Part shown: piece after piece, positions 4,734-50,641 of the stretch
How positions within the stretch are numbered: the first letter of the stretch is position 1
Layout: each line of letters starts with the position of its first letter
Virus record (IMG/VR): IMGVR_UViG_3300042914_004203
Span: 1 to 56,571 of that record
Length of the DNA stretch: 56,571 nucleotides
From: a virus
Taxonomy: Duplodnaviria > Caudoviricetes
Strand: one strand, 5' to 3'
Translations under genes and position numbers: made by a program
The notes under the pieces: generated by a model
What the model saw: the letters and a program-made list of their open reading frames with translations, nothing else
Databases searched by the model: none
Told to the model about the DNA's origin: nothing

Positions 4734-4772
4734 ATATTTAACAATATTACACTTTAATTTAATTAATTTAAA

Positions 4773-11567: not shown

Positions 11568-12662
11568 TTACCATTCAGCAAGAGCTGTTCTTCGCCATCT
11601 TATACCATCATGAGAATAAATATAATTAGAATCTGTAGTAATTTGACCAGATACTCCAAATGATGCAGAAGAAGATGGTATATATGAATTTTCTAATATT
11701 ATTTTATTTTTAATAAAAGTGCCACTAGCAAAGTCAAGAGTCAATGTATTTGATCCAGCAGAAGTGTGATCTCTATCTTGACTATCGCTTAAAAGCACGG
11801 CTCCACTATGATCTACTTGTATCGTAGATCTTGTTCCAGCTAAGATTGATCCATAATTTGAAAAGATTTTATTTTGCGTCCCATTTAATATAACTCCAAA
11901 TGAACCAGTTACAAAATTATTTCTACCATTTATGATCGTAGAGTGCGTGCCAGATAAATAACTACAAAAACCATTTATAATTGAATTAAAACAGGTATTT
12001 GCGCCCCAAATATGATTCCTCTGACCATTTAAAATGGTAGAAGCTCTTGCTCTATTATCAATCACAGACCCTCTAGATGTACCAATTAAATTATTTCCAC
12101 CTTCACTTATTCCGCCTATTCCTATTCCTTGGACAGTTCCAGATGCTATCACATTTACTTGACCACCAAGAATTGCAGAGTAAAAAGTTCTACCTATTAT
12201 CGAATTACATTGTCCACCGACAATTATTGATTGATTAGCTGATGGATCACTAGGGCTAGTATTGCATATCAAATTATCATATCCTCCTAGGACAGCGCCG
12301 CCAAGAACTCCGCTTATTCTATTTCTACATCCGCCACCTATTGTCGAATAGGTAGATGCTGTTCCTCCATATACATTATTAAAAATTCCTCCACCAATAA
12401 ATGATCCTTGAGAATAAATATTATTAAATATGCCTCCACCGATCACATTCCAATTTCCAGAAGCACAATGATTATATCCCCCAAGTATAACTGTGGAAGT
12501 AGGAAGACCAAATGTTTGCGAATCTATAATGCAAGAATCTAAACCAAAATTAGCTGTGCCTTGGCCTCCAACTTGAAAATCTACCTCCGAAGCAGGTATT
12601 TCAGATTTTCTTCCGTCCTCGTCAATTCTTATAAGATATAATTGATTTAAAATATTTGACAT
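11568..12662 (-). CDS. Fibre/adhesin-like protein with IGGGxxN repeats
   Basis: Same repeat type and GQITTDSNYIY..WRRTA module as 9187-11244. Confidence 0.65.
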   Translation of the reverse strand: MSNILNQLYLIRIDEDGRKSEIPASEVDFQVGGQGTANFGLDSCIIDSQTFGLPTSTVILGGYNHCASGNWNVIGGGIFNNIYSQGSFIGGGIFNNVYGGTASTYSTIGGGCRNRISGVLGGAVLGGYDNLICNTSPSDPSANQSIIVGGQCNSIIGRTFYSAILGGQVNVIASGTVQGIGIGGISEGGNNLIGTSRGSVIDNRARASTILNGQRNHIWGANTCFNSIINGFCSYLSGTHSTIINGRNNFVTGSFGVILNGTQNKIFSNYGSILAGTRSTIQVDHSGAVLLSDSQDRDHTSAGSNTLTLDFASGTFIKNKIILENSYIPSSSASFGVSGQITTDSNYIYSHDGIRWRRTALAEW

Positions 12663-12666
12663 ATAA

Positions 12667-12948
12667 TTATGTTACTTTTGTCCAATTTACATATACAGGA
12701 ATTGCATACCAATTTCCTTCTGATCCATTTCCACTTGAGCAGATATACATAAATTGATTGTCCCATGCTATCTGACCACTATAACCTGGAGAGTATACGC
12801 CTGTGGGCGCTGATCCTGGGCCAAGGCGAATTCCACCGTTTAGATTTATCTCAGAATCATTCCCTGTTATTCTAACATATCTTAAATCTAATTGACCAGA
12901 ATTAGTAAGTTGTTCGGTAAATATCTGTAGGCCATTAAACGTGCGCAT
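12667..12948 (-). CDS. Small fibre-associated protein (paralogue of 11246-11524)
   Basis: Near-identical N-terminus MRTFNGLQIFTEQLTNSGQLD. Confidence 0.7.
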   Translation of the reverse strand: MRTFNGLQIFTEQLTNSGQLDLRYVRITGNDSEINLNGGIRLGPGSAPTGVYSPGYSGQIAWDNQFMYICSSGNGSEGNWYAIPVYVNWTKVT

Positions 12949-14893: not shown

Positions 14894-14911
14894 TTAACGT
14901 AAATATTACAC

Positions 14912-26700: not shown

Positions 26701-27326
26701 TTATTATTATCTATATTCTCTCTAAATAGTCTAATTTGTAATTCTATAGAAGTTGGATTTTGTAAATCTGCCCGATACCAATTTCTAGTAGGAACCGCTT
26801 CATTTTGAGTAGAATTATTATAATACATAATGTCATTTTCTGCATCATAAAGACACCAAATATCATTTCTTTTATATTGAATCCAATTTGTTCTAAATTG
26901 TGGTTGGCCAGCTCTAACTGAGGCAGCATAATACCCTCGACTATCACTTGTATTAGAAAAATTTGCCTCTAAAGAGAGAGATTCTGCAGCAGTAGAGCCT
27001 TTAAAAAGTACAAATTTTTTACCAAAATAATCACCTGTTAGATTATTTCCATATACGACAACCCAACCACCGTCAGTAAAACCCGCTACTGACCAATTAT
27101 TTTGTCCCAAATTAGTTGAAGAAGTGTCAAACCTAATTGAGCTATTAAAAGTAAAATAGTTTATCGCGAGGATTGGTAGTTCTATTGGGGCTATAGGACT
27201 AGTATTTCCTCCAATAATACTACGTATAATTTGTTTTTTTCTTCTAATTTCTTTAATAGGAATAGCGCTATTATTACTGCTTTTTGAAGAAACTTTTTTT
27301 ACAGAAATTGTTCCTCTGATTCTCAT
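23757..27326 (-). CDS. Large multidomain protein with two blocks of BspA-type leucine-rich repeats
   Basis: 23-aa repeats (LTSITIPNSVTSIGxxAFxxC), visible as 69-nt DNA repeats at about 23.8-24.95 kb; two (GS)n linkers. Confidence 0.85.
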   Translation of the reverse strand: MRIRGTISVKKVSSKSSNNSAIPIKEIRRKKQIIRSIIGGNTSPIAPIELPILAINYFTFNSSIRFDTSSTNLGQNNWSVAGFTDGGWVVVYGNNLTGDYFGKKFVLFKGSTAAESLSLEANFSNTSDSRGYYAASVRAGQPQFRTNWIQYKRNDIWCLYDAENDIMYYNNSTQNEAVPTRNWYRADLQNPTSIELQIRLFRENIDNNNSESGSGSGSGSGTLAVGMGSLNNAIDATRRVAVSYNNDAGLGSILESIYNDYGRNLGKRAIDIGHLFVTRNNFVVAINNKPRSLGGGIGYAGAISFYKNNDGLVPAAAISYSLEQASLFANISVASITNNYGSGLDYDIYLIKNQNQGIITSRGIPINRNPLKILNDNTSTETNAFFEVFSNGKVFRSKIANGDDYQWHYGNFDIDITHETRRVLYAENVHNGLFFAEGPIACYVENINNLPVINVIDPSRGSLKKITMPADLLIYITINNIKKIIIKNLDGGIYDIAVSIAQEEGQPNLFYGRLDLNSNGEQQTIAFTSYSVTAANDITYNFSANNIYAVTKNYQVFAVRVNIGQEQVASNVRLIANSIGIKYIPSEDGSGSGSGSGSGSYGISIGESLLDEFLLGPLFGPLDITNSIKSVQTVNENIILYVNQGHSGPILLINKTLEKYIIDPQFNSIQSAGENVYTKQIDYNSYNLPITGWLDAQNNPVEFSLTATPVEEWIVMFGTANGWYNNAYWINNVKTTLTQNGTGTVNDYGVLVENNGITITSYFGNETQLTIPSEILGLPVKRIRENAFKEKMNITSITIPNSVTTIESYAFRGCQNLISIVLPNSITSIGNGAFEYCYDLTNITIPNSVTSIGNAAFARCTSLTTINIPNSVTSIGDIAFYDCSGLTSVTIPNSVTTIGNGAFYGCTGLTSITIPNSVTSIGDIAFLSAGLTSVVLPQAFSTELSRIGLTQGNLSVYHIGTDNVIRLNQNGTLVNALSNYTAIFENGGATLSAYTGNETSVNIPNQVAGLPVKNIGDSAFYNKLNMTSVTIPNSVISIGNQAFLFCRYLTSVTIPNSVTSIGYHAFNGCIRLTSVTIPNSVTSIGIGAFYDTALTTITIPNSVTSIESLTFFSCDGLTSITIPNSVTSIGNGAFNSCVGLTSITIPNSVTSIGDIAFLDAGLTSITLPQAFSTELSRIGINPNINITYT
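25528..25562. repeat. 12-bp tandem repeat encoding a GSGS linker
   Basis: GATCCAGAGCCT x3 (last copy partial). Confidence 0.8.
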
Positions 27327-27342
27327 TAAAGGAAATTACACT

Positions 27343-34105: not shown

Positions 34106-34126
34106 TTACACTCTTTTAAGGTGTAA
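34106..34126. promoter_or_regulatory. Back-to-back pair of GTGTAA putative late-promoter motifs
   Basis: TTACAC (34106-34111) lies 9 nt before the minus-strand ATG at 34096 and GTGTAA (34121-34126) lies 14 nt before the plus-strand ATG at 34141; the same motif precedes about 16 other genes. Confidence 0.7.
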
Positions 34127-34140
34127 TATACTTTATATTT

Positions 34141-46623: not shown

Positions 46624-47061
46624 ATATTTACTTTAATCTAAATTCTTATTTAGTCAATTTCTTTTTCTTCTTTGAGGAAGGTTTATTCCATGTAGGATTA
46701 CTCCATATACGATGAATCATTTTAAGGTATCGCCTTCTTTCTGCCCAAGTCATTTCGTAGTTTTGAAATATCATATATTATTTAGTTAATAGTATTCTTA
46801 ATAGCTCTGATGCTCCACCTGCTTCATCAGCAAACTCTTTGAACAATTCAACTATTTGAATATTAGATAATTGGCCGCGCTCGTAATTTATTATTTTATT
46901 AATATCAATCATATTTAATAATGATTAAGATAAATATAAAGAGCCGTGAAAGTTATGATAAGAAAGGCAACTATTGTATCTCCTGTGATCATACAAATGG
47001 CAATATTAATCCTGCAATAACAAAGCCAAGTGAAATTAACAAGGAAACTTGAATGATGATC

Positions 47062-47289
47062 TTACTCATCATCCTCGTCCTCATCGCACTCGACATCAAC
47101 TGCTTCGAAGGTATAATCAACCTCGTCCCAATCAAGGGAGAAGCCATTTGCGTCTGTGCAATTCTCTGCGAGTTCCATAGCCTTGTCAATCGCTTCCATA
47201 TCATTCGTGGCTTCCACCTCGATGTCTACTTCTGCGATCTGGTTGCGTTGCATACGAATCGTGAATTTTTTTGTTTCGGTGTTGTTCAT
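47062..47289 (-). CDS. Acidic hypothetical protein
   Basis: TTGACT-N16-TATAGT-N6-ATG; VEATNDMEAIDKA motif. Confidence 0.7.
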   Translation of the reverse strand: MNNTETKKFTIRMQRNQIAEVDIEVEATNDMEAIDKAMELAENCTDANGFSLDWDEVDYTFEAVDVECDEDEDDE

Positions 47290-47319
47290 AGGTTTACTAT
47301 AATGTATTTTTTAATATAG

Positions 47320-47586
47320 TCAAATACTATTTTTGATTAATTCTACTTTCCAGTTCTTGTTAATCCAGCTAGTAATCATATCAGTATAATAAGTAGTAGT
47401 TATTTGCCACAAATCTCTTTCGATTCTAATCCTATCAAAGCTATAATAGATATATTGATTAACTAATTTGCCTGTGCCATAATTGCTATCAAGCACATCT
47501 ATTTTAATATTAGTTAAAGTCTTGGGAATAGACACCTTGATCTTTCCGCCAACAGCATACTCGCCAATCTTGAATGTTTTAGTCAT
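47320..47586 (-). CDS. Hypothetical protein
   Basis: TTGACA-N16-TATATT-N6-ATG. Confidence 0.7.
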   Translation of the reverse strand: MTKTFKIGEYAVGGKIKVSIPKTLTNIKIDVLDSNYGTGKLVNQYIYYSFDRIRIERDLWQITTTYYTDMITSWINKNWKVELIKNSI

Positions 47587-47606
47587 TCAATTAATATATG
47601 CTAAAT

Positions 47607-47813
47607 TTATATTTTGTCAATCCTCGATGCTTTGAAGCTTTCGCATTCGAATCCTGTGAAATCTTTTATTGCTTGACCGCCCCTGCAGTTCAAGTTGCCA
47701 AAGCCTTTGTCCGCTTGATATTTACTTAAATCAACATAAATAGTATTTGGTAAGATACCATTAATAATACCATTAGGTTGCTTGTAGACTATATCGTATA
47801 ATTTGTATCTCAT
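47607..47813 (-). CDS. Hypothetical protein
   Basis: Start moved to ATG 47813 because the longer ORF runs through tRNA-Thr. Confidence 0.55.
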   Translation of the reverse strand: MRYKLYDIVYKQPNGIINGILPNTIYVDLSKYQADKGFGNLNCRGGQAIKDFTGFECESFKASRIDKI

Positions 47814-47821
47814 ATTTAACG

Positions 47822-47893
47822 AGCCAGAAATCGGATTCGAACCGATGACCTGCGGTTTACAAAACCGCTGCACTACCGCTGTGCTATTCTGGC
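47822..47893 (-). tRNA. tRNA-Thr(TGT)
   Basis: Acceptor GCCAGAA/TTCTGGC, anticodon arm GCGGT-TTTGTAA-ACCGC. Confidence 0.9.
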
Positions 47894-47914
47894 CTATTTA
47901 TTATTATGATACTA

Positions 47915-48112
47915 TTATTTTACTTTTTCAAGGATATCTTGTTCTTTTACCCATTGAACATAAACTAAATCAACAAATATTTCATATCTAATACTATAGT
48001 CCCAATTTAAATTTGCTTGTCTTATATTAATTATTTCACCAATTACTATTTCATTATTGTAAATGCACTTATATTTTACTTTATCTCCAACCTTGTATTT
48101 AGGATTACTCAT
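47915..48112 (-). CDS. Small SH3/KOW-like protein
   Basis: PKYKVGDKV...WVKEQDI pattern. Confidence 0.6.
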   Translation of the reverse strand: MSNPKYKVGDKVKYKCIYNNEIVIGEIINIRQANLNWDYSIRYEIFVDLVYVQWVKEQDILEKVK

Positions 48113-48229
48113 AGACTTAATAAAAATTTAGCTATGCCAAATATTATAAGTCCGATAATCAAAGTAAATATATATTCTGAGCCGTCTTTCATTTAATTCT
48201 CTAAAAGCTAAGTATATAAAAAGACCCCC

Positions 48230-48285
48230 TGTACCGAGGTAGATGCCGCCGACCCATTTCGGATCAGCGGTTAGGCCTCGGCACA
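48230..48285 (-). other. Strong GC-rich nested hairpin 3' of the intron-like core
   Basis: GUGCCGAGG/CCUCGGUAC outer stem and CCGCUGAUCC-GAAAU-GGGUCGGCGG inner stem, followed by GGGGGUCUUUUU. Confidence 0.65.
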
Positions 48286-48286
48286 C

Positions 48287-48530
48287 CTTAATTGTTAAAC
48301 TTATTATTGTTAATTCTAATAAGAGCGGACTGTATAATGCTACTATAATATCACTAATATAGTAGTTGGGTCAGAATGATAGATTATTGTTGGAATCTCA
48401 CTATCTCAGTCTCTACACCTTCCTATCAACATAAATTCCAGATAGGCTTGGCTCGGTAATGTCATCTCAGATTTCTACCGAATTTACTCCACTTTCTACA
48501 TACTTAGTTTTTAAAGAACTACTAAGTATT
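48287..48530 (-). ncRNA. Group I intron-like ribozyme core (boundaries approximate, no host gene seen)
   Basis: P AAAUUCGGUAGAA (48473-48485), Q AUUACCGAGCCAAGC (48446-48460), R GAAGGUGUAGAGACUG (48407-48422) and S UAUACAGUCC (48327-48336) in the right order; P4, P6, P7, P8 and P9 all pair. Confidence 0.75.
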
Positions 48531-48554
48531 ACACTCAAAAATAAAAGAAAAATA

Positions 48555-48915
48555 TGGTTTCGGCGACACCAAAAAACGCTCACAGGATATATGGCTTTAG
48601 CAGGGTTCCGCTTTACTAAAGCATCCAATCTGTGATCTAATACGGAAAATTTTCCACTGGCATCTCAGTGCCCCAACGCACATCTTAGGCCAATGATTCG
48701 GTTAGTTCGTCCATGTTTTTTATCGAGGCTTTTAGCGAAATACTTTGCGGTATTTTTCTCGCAAAGGGTATACTTTTCGCTTTAGGTTAACGGACAACCT
48801 TATTAATCTCGCCCCGTTGATATCAAAGAACATACAGGGAACGAAAGACCATCAAGAGATCAACCTCGACATATCTTCCAATACATCCTCTCGCAACCGA
48901 GAGTTTGCCCTGTAT
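48555..48915 (-). ncRNA. Candidate ~360-nt highly structured RNA
   Basis: No ORF over 60 aa on this strand; TTGACG-N17-TAATAT promoter; at least six stems and two pseudoknot pairings; terminal hairpin and U-tract. Confidence 0.6.
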
Positions 48916-49108
48916 CAATATATATTAATTGTTTTTTTATTTTTCGTCAAGTTTTTTTTCTAGTTGATCCACTCCCAATAAATCGCCAAACAAAGCCCCG
49001 AGAAAATTAAAACAATCTCCATATGATAAACTTTTCTCCATTTCTTTTTTGCTCATACAAGTATTATACATCAAATACAATATTTTGTAGAACATTTATT
49101 TTTTTATT

Positions 49109-49180
49109 CTGCCTAAATAGGACTCGAACCTATAACCATACCGTTAACAGCGGTACGCTCTACCATTGAGCTATTAGGCA
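49109..49180 (-). tRNA. tRNA-Asn(GTT)
   Basis: Acceptor TGCCTAA/TTAGGCA, anticodon arm TACCG-CTGTTAA-CGGTA. Confidence 0.9.
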
Positions 49181-49183
49181 AAA

Positions 49184-49249
49184 CGGCGAGGGTTTACGAT
49201 ACCCACAAACGATTCGCTTATTACGGAAGCGACCACCGATGACCTCACC
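49184..49249 (-). ncRNA. tRNA-like element with a GTA loop and non-canonical D and T arms
   Basis: 7-bp GGTGAGG/CCTCGCC stem, TCGCTT-CCGTAAT-AAGCGA arm and GTTTGTG/CGTAAAC arm; 3 nt upstream of tRNA-Asn. Confidence 0.4.
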
Positions 49250-49276
49250 ATCACCTCACATAAATCTTTGTCTACT

Positions 49277-49627
49277 TTAGGCCAATTCTAGTTCGCTGTC
49301 AAGTTTCTTGGTTTTACCCATCCAGCTTTCGGGCATAATGTGTTTGAACCAATCTTGCATCGAAGGAATACGACCCAAATCTTCAACGACATGCTGTTCG
49401 CCAATCCAGCGAGTAGGAATCTTTTTGCCGTTGGATAATGTGATCGTATGACCAAATATCCTCTCACACATAAATATTCCTTCGGCGTGATGACGCAACG
49501 CACGATGACGGAAGTCTGCCATCATCATCTTTGATTCATCGAACCAATCGTGAATCTTCTGATAATCTTCGGGAACGCCTCCCCATTTCTTTGCTGAAGA
49601 TATAGAATGATGGTAAGGGTTAGCCAT
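49277..49627 (-). CDS. DUF6915-like protein
   Basis: PYHHSISSAKKWGG, IHDWFDESK, RHRALRHH and EQHVVEDLG motifs. Confidence 0.75.
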   Translation of the reverse strand: MANPYHHSISSAKKWGGVPEDYQKIHDWFDESKMMMADFRHRALRHHAEGIFMCERIFGHTITLSNGKKIPTRWIGEQHVVEDLGRIPSMQDWFKHIMPESWMGKTKKLDSELELA

Positions 49628-50130
49628 TAGAATGTCTCCTCGGTAGTATTCACGCTTTCAACACGCTCATTAAACTCAAGACTAATCTTGCGATTAAGAA
49701 CATCAAAGCTGAATGTGCCGTAAGAACCTTCGTTGATTTCCCAGCCCATGTGCGTAGATGCTAACTTATCATAGCATACTTCATGCACGAGTTCTTCAAC
49801 ACAACCTTCACGAGCAGGCAGTTCTTCCATCTTCTTCTTCTTTTCATTCCAATGGTATCCAGCCTCAAGCCTAGACCCTTGAATATTATCGAGGGGTGCG
49901 GCTACATCTTTATCACGATGGTCGTAATAATTAACAGCGTTAATCTGACCGCTATCGCCACAACCATCAAATGTTGCTTCAATAGAAGTAATCCTAGTAT
50001 TGTTTTCTAGGTAATCAAATAATGCTTTTGCATTACGCTTGACTGCTTCGGCTTTGGTTAGACGCTCTTCTGCTATCTTCTGATAGATGTCGTTCATCTT
50101 GGGTAATTTAATTTTTTTGGATTTGCTCAT
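49627..50130 (-). CDS. DUF6878-like protein
   Basis: FDGCGDSGQI and GWEINEGSYG motifs; start moved to ATG 50130 (TTGACT-N16-TATGCT-N6-ATG). Confidence 0.75.
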   Translation of the reverse strand: MSKSKKIKLPKMNDIYQKIAEERLTKAEAVKRNAKALFDYLENNTRITSIEATFDGCGDSGQINAVNYYDHRDKDVAAPLDNIQGSRLEAGYHWNEKKKKMEELPAREGCVEELVHEVCYDKLASTHMGWEINEGSYGTFSFDVLNRKISLEFNERVESVNTTEETF

Positions 50131-50160
50131 ACATTGAGCATACCACAAACTAAATCCTAG

Positions 50161-50301
50161 TCAAGACCCTCGGCGACTTTTCTTTTTCTTCTTAAAGATA
50201 TTAAAGATATCACACTTATAATCATATAGCTTACCGCATACCCAATAAGTGCTATACATCGATATCCAAAGTACGAGTGCAATTGATATTAATTTGATCA
50301 T
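50161..50301 (-). CDS. Small membrane protein
   Basis: Start moved to ATG 50301 (MIKLISIALVLW...). Confidence 0.5.
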   Translation of the reverse strand: MIKLISIALVLWISMYSTYWVCGKLYDYKCDIFNIFKKKKKSRRGS

Positions 50302-50306
50302 ATTAT

Positions 50307-50474
50307 TTAAATCCTTGACATTCCTAGTGGGTGGATCTTTAGCAACAAAGCTTGAAGCTTTTCCAGCGTGTCCTCGTAACCCCAACTCTGTCTATGTTTA
50401 ACATCATTTATTTGATCCATAACACAATCTTGAATTAATCTCCACTCATCTAGAGATAGGTTATTTTGGTTCAT
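50307..50474 (-). CDS. Small hypothetical protein (55 aa, not in the ORF track)
   Basis: TTGACT-N17-TAAACT-N6-ATG; MNQNNLSLDEWRLIQDC... Confidence 0.6.
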   Translation of the reverse strand: MNQNNLSLDEWRLIQDCVMDQINDVKHRQSWGYEDTLEKLQALLLKIHPLGMSRI

Positions 50475-50641
50475 AAGATTAGTTTATTTTACTTATTTAG
50501 CTTAGTCAATTACTTATTTAAAGTTTCTATAAGATGATCTATGGTAGCGTGTTGCGAAGGATCGACCTGTTCCTTTGATGCCACAAGAGCATAAATTAAT
50601 ACGCTAAGTTCTTCTCTATTAAATACAAAAGTTCTCATATA

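Follow-up and report, generated by a model that had tools for sequence, protein, structure and literature searches.

Can a group I ribozyme core stand in a phage genome as a gene of its own, outside any interrupted gene? To our knowledge, natural group I ribozymes are known almost only as introns, and we know of one accepted exception, the lariat-capping ribozyme, which is nested within a further intron in a small number of protists. Group I introns carry a guide strand on the 5' side of their core that forms P1 with the 5' exon and P10 with the 3' exon, P10 being preceded by the terminal G of the intron. The question is raised by a single IMG/VR virus record of 56,571 bases (IMGVR_UViG_3300042914_004203), which was analyzed over its whole length and is hereafter called the window. 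The record is estimated to be 36% complete, its GC content varies between approximately 26 and 44%, and the public runs that contain this stretch are lake-water metagenomes, with 57-95% of its words present in the DNA runs X1-X7. The best named relatives of a virion protein that it encodes are found in T4-like cyanophages (40% identity). Eight intact tRNA genes were detected on the minus strand with ARAGORN and Rfam, and the element studied here is located between those for tRNA-Asn (49108-49181) and tRNA-Thr (47821-47893).

The element spans positions 48194-48534 of the minus strand and folds as a group I core composed of P3-P9 and a P7.1 hairpin (Table 1). An initial annotation, made from the sequence alone, had described a group I core without a host gene at this locus. 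All core parts that it named (P4, P6, the R element, P7.1, P8, the S element and P9) were recovered on the minus strand where it had placed them, and the element proved longer than first reported, as its 3' strand extends to 48194. The conserved group I core is complete, comprising the P3-P8 and P4-P6 domains, the P3/P7 pseudoknot and the R and S elements.

Table 1. Features of the element and its immediate surroundings in the window (bp, base pairs; A2, full-element alignment of the seven copies).
Feature	Position	Strand	Remarks
GTGTAAT, late-gene upstream (promoter-like) motif	48528-48534	-	A2 columns 1-6 invariant
Closing (P10-like) helix, 5' strand	48492-48521	-	Leads directly into P3; pairs with 48194-48223
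P3, 5' strand (GGAGU)	48486-48490	-	4 pairs, 92.9% paired across 7 sequences
P4	48476-48482 / 48452-48458	-	7 pairs, 100% paired, never vary
P5, vestigial, enclosed by P4	48464-48472	-	About 3 bp in the window
P6 hairpin (CCUAUC/GAUAGG)	48441-48446 / 48422-48427	-	6 pairs, 100% paired, 2 with both-side changes
J6/7 and P7 5' strand (R element)	48407-48421	-	Invariant in 7 of 7 sequences
P7.1-type hairpin	48378-48405	-	5 pairs, 100% paired, 3 with both-side changes; loop 100% conserved
P3, 3' strand (ACCC)	48368-48371	-	Forms the P3/P7 pseudoknot together with P7
P8 hairpin	48358-48365 / 48340-48347	-	8 bp in the window and L004
J8/7 and P7 3' strand (S element)	48327-48339	-	P7 of 5 pairs, invariant in 7 of 7 sequences
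P9 hairpin	48317-48323 / 48300-48306	-	Other copies 7 bp with GNRA loop; L004 altered on both sides
UAACA joiner	48286-48299	-	Precedes the P9 peripheral extension
P9 peripheral extension	48231-48284	-	Outer stem 48276-48284 / 48231-48239; inner GAAA-loop hairpin 48246-48270
G run	48225-48229	-	GGGG invariant in 7 of 7 copies (A2 columns G306-G309); candidate omega-G
Closing (P10-like) helix, 3' strand	48194-48223	-	Last part of the element
Hydrophobic ORF, 27 codons	48109-48192	-	Begins one base past the closing helix; context only

Homologues were collected with core patterns. Three patterns, exact or degenerate, returned the same four viral contigs each time, and a degenerate P7/P7.1 pattern run on metagenomes matched eight stretches, which added three new copies; in bacterial genome contigs this P7/P7.1 pattern had no match. 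A blastn search at a distant setting with positions 48150-49000 as query found no homologue in named phages. After removal of duplicates, seven distinct copies were retained, all from lake phage contigs: those of the window and of loci L002, L003, L004, L126, L128 and L130. The other copies share an overall identity of approximately 72-80% with that of the window, and the core measures 221-228 nt in all seven.

Covariation across homologues, which the initial annotation had proposed as a check, was counted on alignment A2 (51 pairs in six helices, giving 357 cells over the seven sequences, which represent two clades only). Of these cells, 95.8% are paired, compared with 33-45% when the partners are slid by one to three columns. 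Both-side changes occur in ten pairs, a count reached in only 6 of 500 shuffles, and none of the 500 attained the observed covariation score (0.219 versus 0.130 +/- 0.014). P8 and P9 were excluded from this formal count because MAFFT aligns them poorly with the window and L004 copies; within the five L002-type copies, P5, P8 and P9 covary. The RNA of positions 48192-48522 folds at -105.4 kcal/mol versus -72.9 +/- 5.2 kcal/mol for shuffled sequences (z = -6.27; none of 100 shuffles as good), and the L002 copy has a folding z of -5.00. The selection on the core that had been suspected from its P7 is thus borne out by pairing, compensation and folding energy. The P7 variant that prompted this suspicion (GACUG/CAGUC) is real but not special, as it is also found in introns L010, L023 and L089.

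The copies differ in their degree of reduction. P3 is cut to 4 bp in the element, and its previously reported mismatching takes the form of an A.C pair in the window and L004, where five of the seven sequences have G-C. In the L002-type copies, P5 has 5 bp and P8 has 7 bp with a GAAA loop. The P9 extension varies in size between copies (approximately 60-290 nt, estimated by eye), and a GNRA-loop hairpin is kept in each. In the window, this extension corresponds to the strong GC hairpin for which the initial annotation had considered, among other options, release as a 3' product; it is a peripheral part of the RNA itself. The window copy is the most reduced of all, with its P5 of about 3 bp, the A.C mismatch in P3 and no GNRA loops on P8 and P9, and it may be impaired by the vestigial P5 and the mismatched P3.

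Rfam does not call a group I intron in the window at the gathering threshold. In a 1.6-kb search, the general model RF00028 (Intron_gpI) matched the element with 18.9 bits (E = 0.054) against a cut-off of 50; this match runs through the entire model, with P4, P6, P8, R and S all in their correct positions. The same model gave no match in L003, L004, L126 and L128 at E <= 1, nor in L126 and L128 at E <= 10. Among 4227 Rfam families at E <= 10, RF00028 alone matched the core; a mir-251 match on the P9 hairpin was dismissed as chance. Kin introns that share the P7.1 loop motif (L121, L125, L127 and L131) are validated by Rfam, scoring 57.5-96.4 bits in the same search (L127, 96.4; L121, 84.7; L125, 63.8; L131, 57.5), whereas the element remains under the cut-off.

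A subfamily model, R1, was examined alongside Rfam; it was built from the seven cores and has 223 positions and 42 pairs. At E <= 0.01 it matched 98 times in one scan of 100 sources and 22 times in another of 29. It recognizes introns L125 (108.8 bits), L106 (106.3), L121 (80.4), L127 (69.9) and L131 (45.8), with E-values down to 1.2e-29, scores that are partly built in since most scanned loci had been retrieved by an element-derived pattern. L127 and L131 are still matched although they differ in their P4/P6 words, and R1 also picks up second introns in loci, for which the search patterns did not select. It detects one copy in the window and none in the loci with empty sites described below. 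R-element words were found in more than 119 viral-contig stretches as well, many of which are tRNA introns. A model of the kin alone was not used, as the MAFFT alignment (A3) misaligned the 5' halves of L127 and L131. The initial annotation had regarded the lack of a significant covariance-model hit as decisive against a group I assignment. Taken formally, the result of the general model has this effect; the family model finds validated introns, and the test was too strict. By sequence homology, the core is related to group I introns, yet its subfamily does not reach the Rfam membership score, and the element also has neither a P1 with a U.G pair nor an interrupted gene. As side observations, several viral contigs carry two or three R1-matched group I introns per locus (L040, L049, L054, L058, L070, L095, L102 and L114), and the R1 matches include an intron in a capsid-like gene (L019 and L040).

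The cassette was found in three different genomic contexts, and the gene downstream of it is a different one in each. In L002, L003, L126, L128 and L130, it is located between the stop codon of a complete 157-aa ORF and an ORF of 212-231 aa downstream. In L004, it follows a 181-aa ORF of endonuclease/HNH type (PHROG 3322, E = 1.4e-26; PHROG 3118, E = 5.7e-17) for which Pfam gave no match. In the window, a separate RNA precedes it. The L004 locus also comprises a phage-borne tmRNA gene (11806-12196; Rfam, 108.7 bits), after which the endonuclease/HNH-type ORF is located (12265-12810), its stop codon adjoining the GTGTAAG of the element. In the window, the putative ribosome-binding bases of the 27-codon ORF fall within the closing helix.

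A search with the 157-aa protein yielded nine loci, two of which are known carriers and seven of which are without the element. In five of these seven (L134-L138), the same two ORFs lie 7-19 nt apart, with no core motif, R1 match or trace of either helix strand between them; L139 and L140 have another downstream gene. These empty sites in relatives indicate that the whole cassette is an insertion and that no gene, coding or non-coding, is interrupted. The absence of an interrupted CDS, tRNA or rRNA, as initially described, is thereby upheld, as is that of a homing endonuclease, none being present in the window. The earlier inference that a non-coding RNA is spliced is not supported, given that P1 is missing and the empty sites have no exon remnants. 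A split tRNA, tmRNA or rRNA was rejected, since ARAGORN and Rfam find only the intact tRNAs and the flanks contain no half-genes. A split protein gene was rejected too: the frames cannot be joined and the empty sites argue against it. Nor is the element an IStron, as no family-matching ORF of at least 30 aa lies inside it and its 3' domain is structured RNA with GNRA hairpins.

Its nearest kin, L125 (2842-3055, minus strand) and L106 (5385-5593, minus strand), are located between two complete ORFs, just ahead of the downstream ribosome-binding site. L125 has a strong AGGAGG upstream of the ribozyme. Both may be introns in an untranslated leader. A search for empty sites of these kin detected no relative of the 128-aa protein.

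Conservation among the homologues begins exactly at GTGTAA, the late motif of the initial annotation, which indeed recurs upstream of genes. GTGTAAK occurs at 21 sites in the window versus 11.3 +/- 3.5 expected, and none of 100 shuffles reached 21. A same-strand start codon follows 14 of these sites at a distance of 5-21 nt, in most cases that of a large structural-gene ORF (one of the 14, ahead of the 1189-aa ORF at 27326, was assigned by eye). Judging by position alone, the motif is likely a late promoter or start signal of this phage group. Examples of sites are 4746-4752, 14905-14911, 27335-27341 and 34121-34127. The interval from the motif to the start codon often lacks a Shine-Dalgarno sequence, and some messages of this phage group may be nearly leaderless. 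The empty sites of L136-L138 read stop codon, GTGTAAT, 8 nt, ATG. In L128 and L130, one GTGTAAT stands ahead of the element and another ahead of the downstream ATG; as the second one is retained there, the element brings its own copy.

The ends of the element pair with each other in a closing helix that, together with the invariant GGGG preceding its 3' strand, had been missed initially. This helix comprises 24-30 bp (24 aligned pairs; approximately 30 bp in the window by eye), is 92.3% paired in the seven sequences with both-side changes in five pairs, and is present in the MFE and centroid folds of the window and L002 alike. A compensated example is CUAAGCAG/CUGCUUAG versus CUAAACAG/CUGUUUAG. 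Its non-Watson-Crick cells consist of 15 G.U/U.G against 4 A.C, a count that is only indicative as the copies are related. This excess fits RNA pairing on the minus strand and not a DNA inverted repeat, and a MITE-like element with terminal inverted repeats was dismissed on the same grounds, the mismatches being strand-biased. The GGGG lies 1-2 nt upstream of the 3' strand, and from this position we infer that the G run would be the terminal guanosine (omega-G) of a ribozyme. An alternative P3 that uses the G run is perfect (5 bp) in the window only and has 3-4 bp elsewhere, and was dropped.

No P1 can be drawn, in line with the weak or absent P1 reported before: the strand 5' of P3 is wholly paired to the 3' end, with a gap of 0-1 nt between the closing helix and P3. 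By eye, no guide complementary to GUGUAAU, to the upstream flanks or located inside the local 5' hairpins is consistent over the seven copies. The closing helix contains no conserved U.G pair (that of columns 21/551 is U-A in two of seven), so no site is marked in the manner of P1. In L125 and L106, the strand preceding P3 likewise pairs with the 3' end, over 6-7 bp as drawn by eye, in a topologically equivalent position, which supports homology of the closing helix with P10. Given this pairing and the three spare nucleotides before P3 in these kin, the closing helix looks like an overgrown P10.

Expression data bear mainly on the neighboring RNA. Immediately upstream of the element, positions 48565-48912 of the minus strand hold an unannotated structured RNA (folding z = -2.56) with a sigma-70-like promoter at 48950-48922 and a U-tract near 48560-48570. 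It has no Rfam match at E <= 10 and no homologue in the other fetched loci or in named phages; a relationship to tmRNA was rejected, as it resembles neither the L004 tmRNA nor any other locus. RNA contigs were taken from four lake metatranscriptome sets, out of six RNA runs among 24 listed. In two runs, the upstream RNA is the deepest-covered region of the 3.5 kb (X20, 60.6x over 48591-48865; X22, 120.3x over 48671-48903). On this basis, the U-tract, which the initial annotation had noted upstream of the element, ends the separate upstream RNA and belongs to the latter. None of the four contig sets has a piece on 48170-48520, a result that does not show the element to be silent. In one RNA-library contig, 48103 is connected to 48543 and no more than 104 other letters intervene; this joint is weak, with a 35-nt side and a minimum likeness of 90, and the joints across the element have sides of 27-35 nt at this setting. 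In run X19, contig joints within 47000-50500 leave out 150-873 nt at the tRNA genes, at the upstream RNA and at the element; with sides of 25-35 nt they are weak, and suggest that related phages lack several such small cassettes.

Tentatively, and at slightly less than an even chance, we take the element to be a stand-alone gene for a group I-derived RNA, a ribozyme that would cut at its own 3' junction, and not an intron of a host gene. The order of its parts would be GTGTAAT, a guide-like strand, the P3-P9 core with P7.1 and the P9 extension, GGGG, and a 3' strand that pairs with the guide-like strand. The RNA would start behind the late-gene motif at the guide-like strand, which would take the place of the internal guide sequence and lead directly into P3. 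Because the guide-like strand is taken by the 3' strand, the G run stands at the place of the terminal G and the apparent start is at the guide, the molecule would resemble a ribozyme without 5' exon and P1 in a state like that of the second splicing step, its terminal G beside a greatly extended P10. This G would then most probably direct a cut where the G run meets the 3' strand, through either hydrolysis or transesterification, and thereby detach the ribozyme from the late RNA that lies downstream. The start of transcription, the function of the G run and any catalytic activity are deduced from sequence, and the specific cut at the 3' junction is the weakest step of this interpretation; a duplex of 24-30 bp would not come apart after a cut, which speaks against a cutting ribozyme. 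A bolder version is plausible but doubtful: a natural group I ribozyme without 5' exon, with its own start signal and a 3' substrate strand tethered via an oversized P10, which may serve late in infection as a dedicated RNA-processing enzyme or, once opened, act in trans.

The nearest conventional account is an intron that removes itself from an untranslated or intergenic region of a late transcript by means of a P1 that is cryptic and very short; its splicing would restore a short leader or alter ribosome access to the downstream gene. Such an intron would resemble L125 and L106, the nearest kin, which score as group I introns while lying between complete ORFs, and in which the three nucleotides before P3 (GUA/AUA) could, by eye, give a 3-bp P1. 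Each copy of the element can also form a local hairpin of 5-9 bp, again by eye, that competes with the closing helix, and Clostridium difficile has a group I intron in a 5' UTR (PMC3984707). However, the 0-1 nt between closing helix and P3 leave no space for a P1-forming guide, a conserved U.G pair is lacking, and conservation ends 6 nt upstream of the helix, at a motif on the DNA level. The second GTGTAAT of L128 and L130 moreover puts the element upstream of the start signal of the downstream gene and outside its leader, and the empty sites hold no exon-like remnant, so that we consider this account unlikely. A low probability is likewise given to an RNA co-opted for its shape and not for catalysis, such as a paired 5' leader that stabilizes the late RNA, a processing stalk for RNase III, or a scaffold or decoy for a factor of the host or phage. 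The substrate size range of RNase III includes duplexes of 24-30 bp, which fits the closing helix, and pairing of the two ends of the element starts at the first nucleotide predicted. In the window and L004, the J5/4 adenines that recognize the P1 wobble are altered (by eye), and P5, P8 and P9 differ between the two clades. Against a role of shape alone, the components on which chemistry depends (P7 including its G-binding pair, J6/7, J8/7 and GGGG) are invariant in all seven copies, while the stems that surround them change with compensation.

The element could also be a selfish passenger, an intron that landed between genes, is useless to the phage and is heading for decay, having been moved by an adjacent free-standing endonuclease or by recombination between promoter motifs. 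The L004 copy adjoins the endonuclease/HNH-type ORF, some related phages have the element and others do not, and the contig that joins 48103 to 48543 is a weak hint in the same direction. Decay, which the initial annotation had kept as an option, agrees with the reduced state of the window copy but is improbable for the family as a whole. An intron placed between genes would not need its fold, yet the ten compensated pairs and invariant core junctions persist at approximately 72-80% identity, and the core length is constant in all seven copies. We judge the passenger very unlikely. A ribozyme acting in trans, whose closing helix opens so that the guide-like strand pairs with a host or phage RNA, is in keeping with the layout of a ribozyme without 5' exon and with the start motif of its own, but a very stable helix in cis takes up the whole guide-like strand, and the sequence of this strand changes in concert with that of its cis partner, a behavior that speaks against a fixed target elsewhere. 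We consider this reading extremely unlikely.

The element shares the P3-P9 core, the R and S elements, the P7.1 loop motif and a GNRA-capped P9 with bacterial and phage group I introns that have P7.1, the nearest of which are L125 and L106 (located between ORFs), L121 and L131 (located in tRNA-like genes) and L127. In contrast to these, it lacks P1, P2 and exons, its P3 has only 4 bp, it has a gene-start motif of its own, and its closing helix of 24-30 bp replaces their P10-like pairing of 6-7 bp. GIR1, from the twin-ribozyme introns of Didymium and Naegleria, is likewise derived from group I and has no P1 substrate helix of its own exon; it has been described in nearly the same terms as the layout seen here (PMC2219692). 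The P10-like closing helix, the G run before the 3' strand and the ORF downstream are GIR1-like as well. However, the core of GIR1 has been rebuilt, with a P15 double pseudoknot, a changed J8/7 and a three-nucleotide lariat fold after the terminal G, whereas J8/7 and P7 of the element are canonical and invariant, which places it outside the GIR1/lariat-capping ribozymes. GIR1 is also found inside another intron in eukaryotic rDNA, ahead of an endonuclease mRNA, while the element resides in phages with a varying downstream gene and, in L004, has the endonuclease gene upstream.

In the 5' UTR of C. difficile, an allosteric group I ribozyme is coupled to a c-di-GMP aptamer and serves an RNA processing that affects translation (PMC3984707). 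In both systems, a gene is preceded by non-coding RNA that contains a group I ribozyme; that of C. difficile splices and has a P1, two exons and an aptamer, whereas the element has no drawable P1, and riboswitch families gave no Rfam match on it at E <= 10. Engineered ribozymes without the 5' exon and the intron start begin at the guide strand and keep the full core, and they perform 3'-site hydrolysis or act on bound strands. The element would differ from these in being natural and in having the bound strand covalently attached at its 3' end. A search of the open-access literature turned up no description of a group I RNA that lacks exons and lies between phage genes.

For annotation, these results carry a warning, as the general Rfam model misses a whole subfamily. 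The element is a compact natural RNA of approximately 330 nt that is suited to a direct test of cleavage directed by a terminal G. If our interpretation is true, viruses that infect bacteria would also have turned the group I fold to another use; in the bolder version, the element would represent the first class of non-splicing, group I-derived ribozymes beyond the eukaryotic twin-ribozyme introns.
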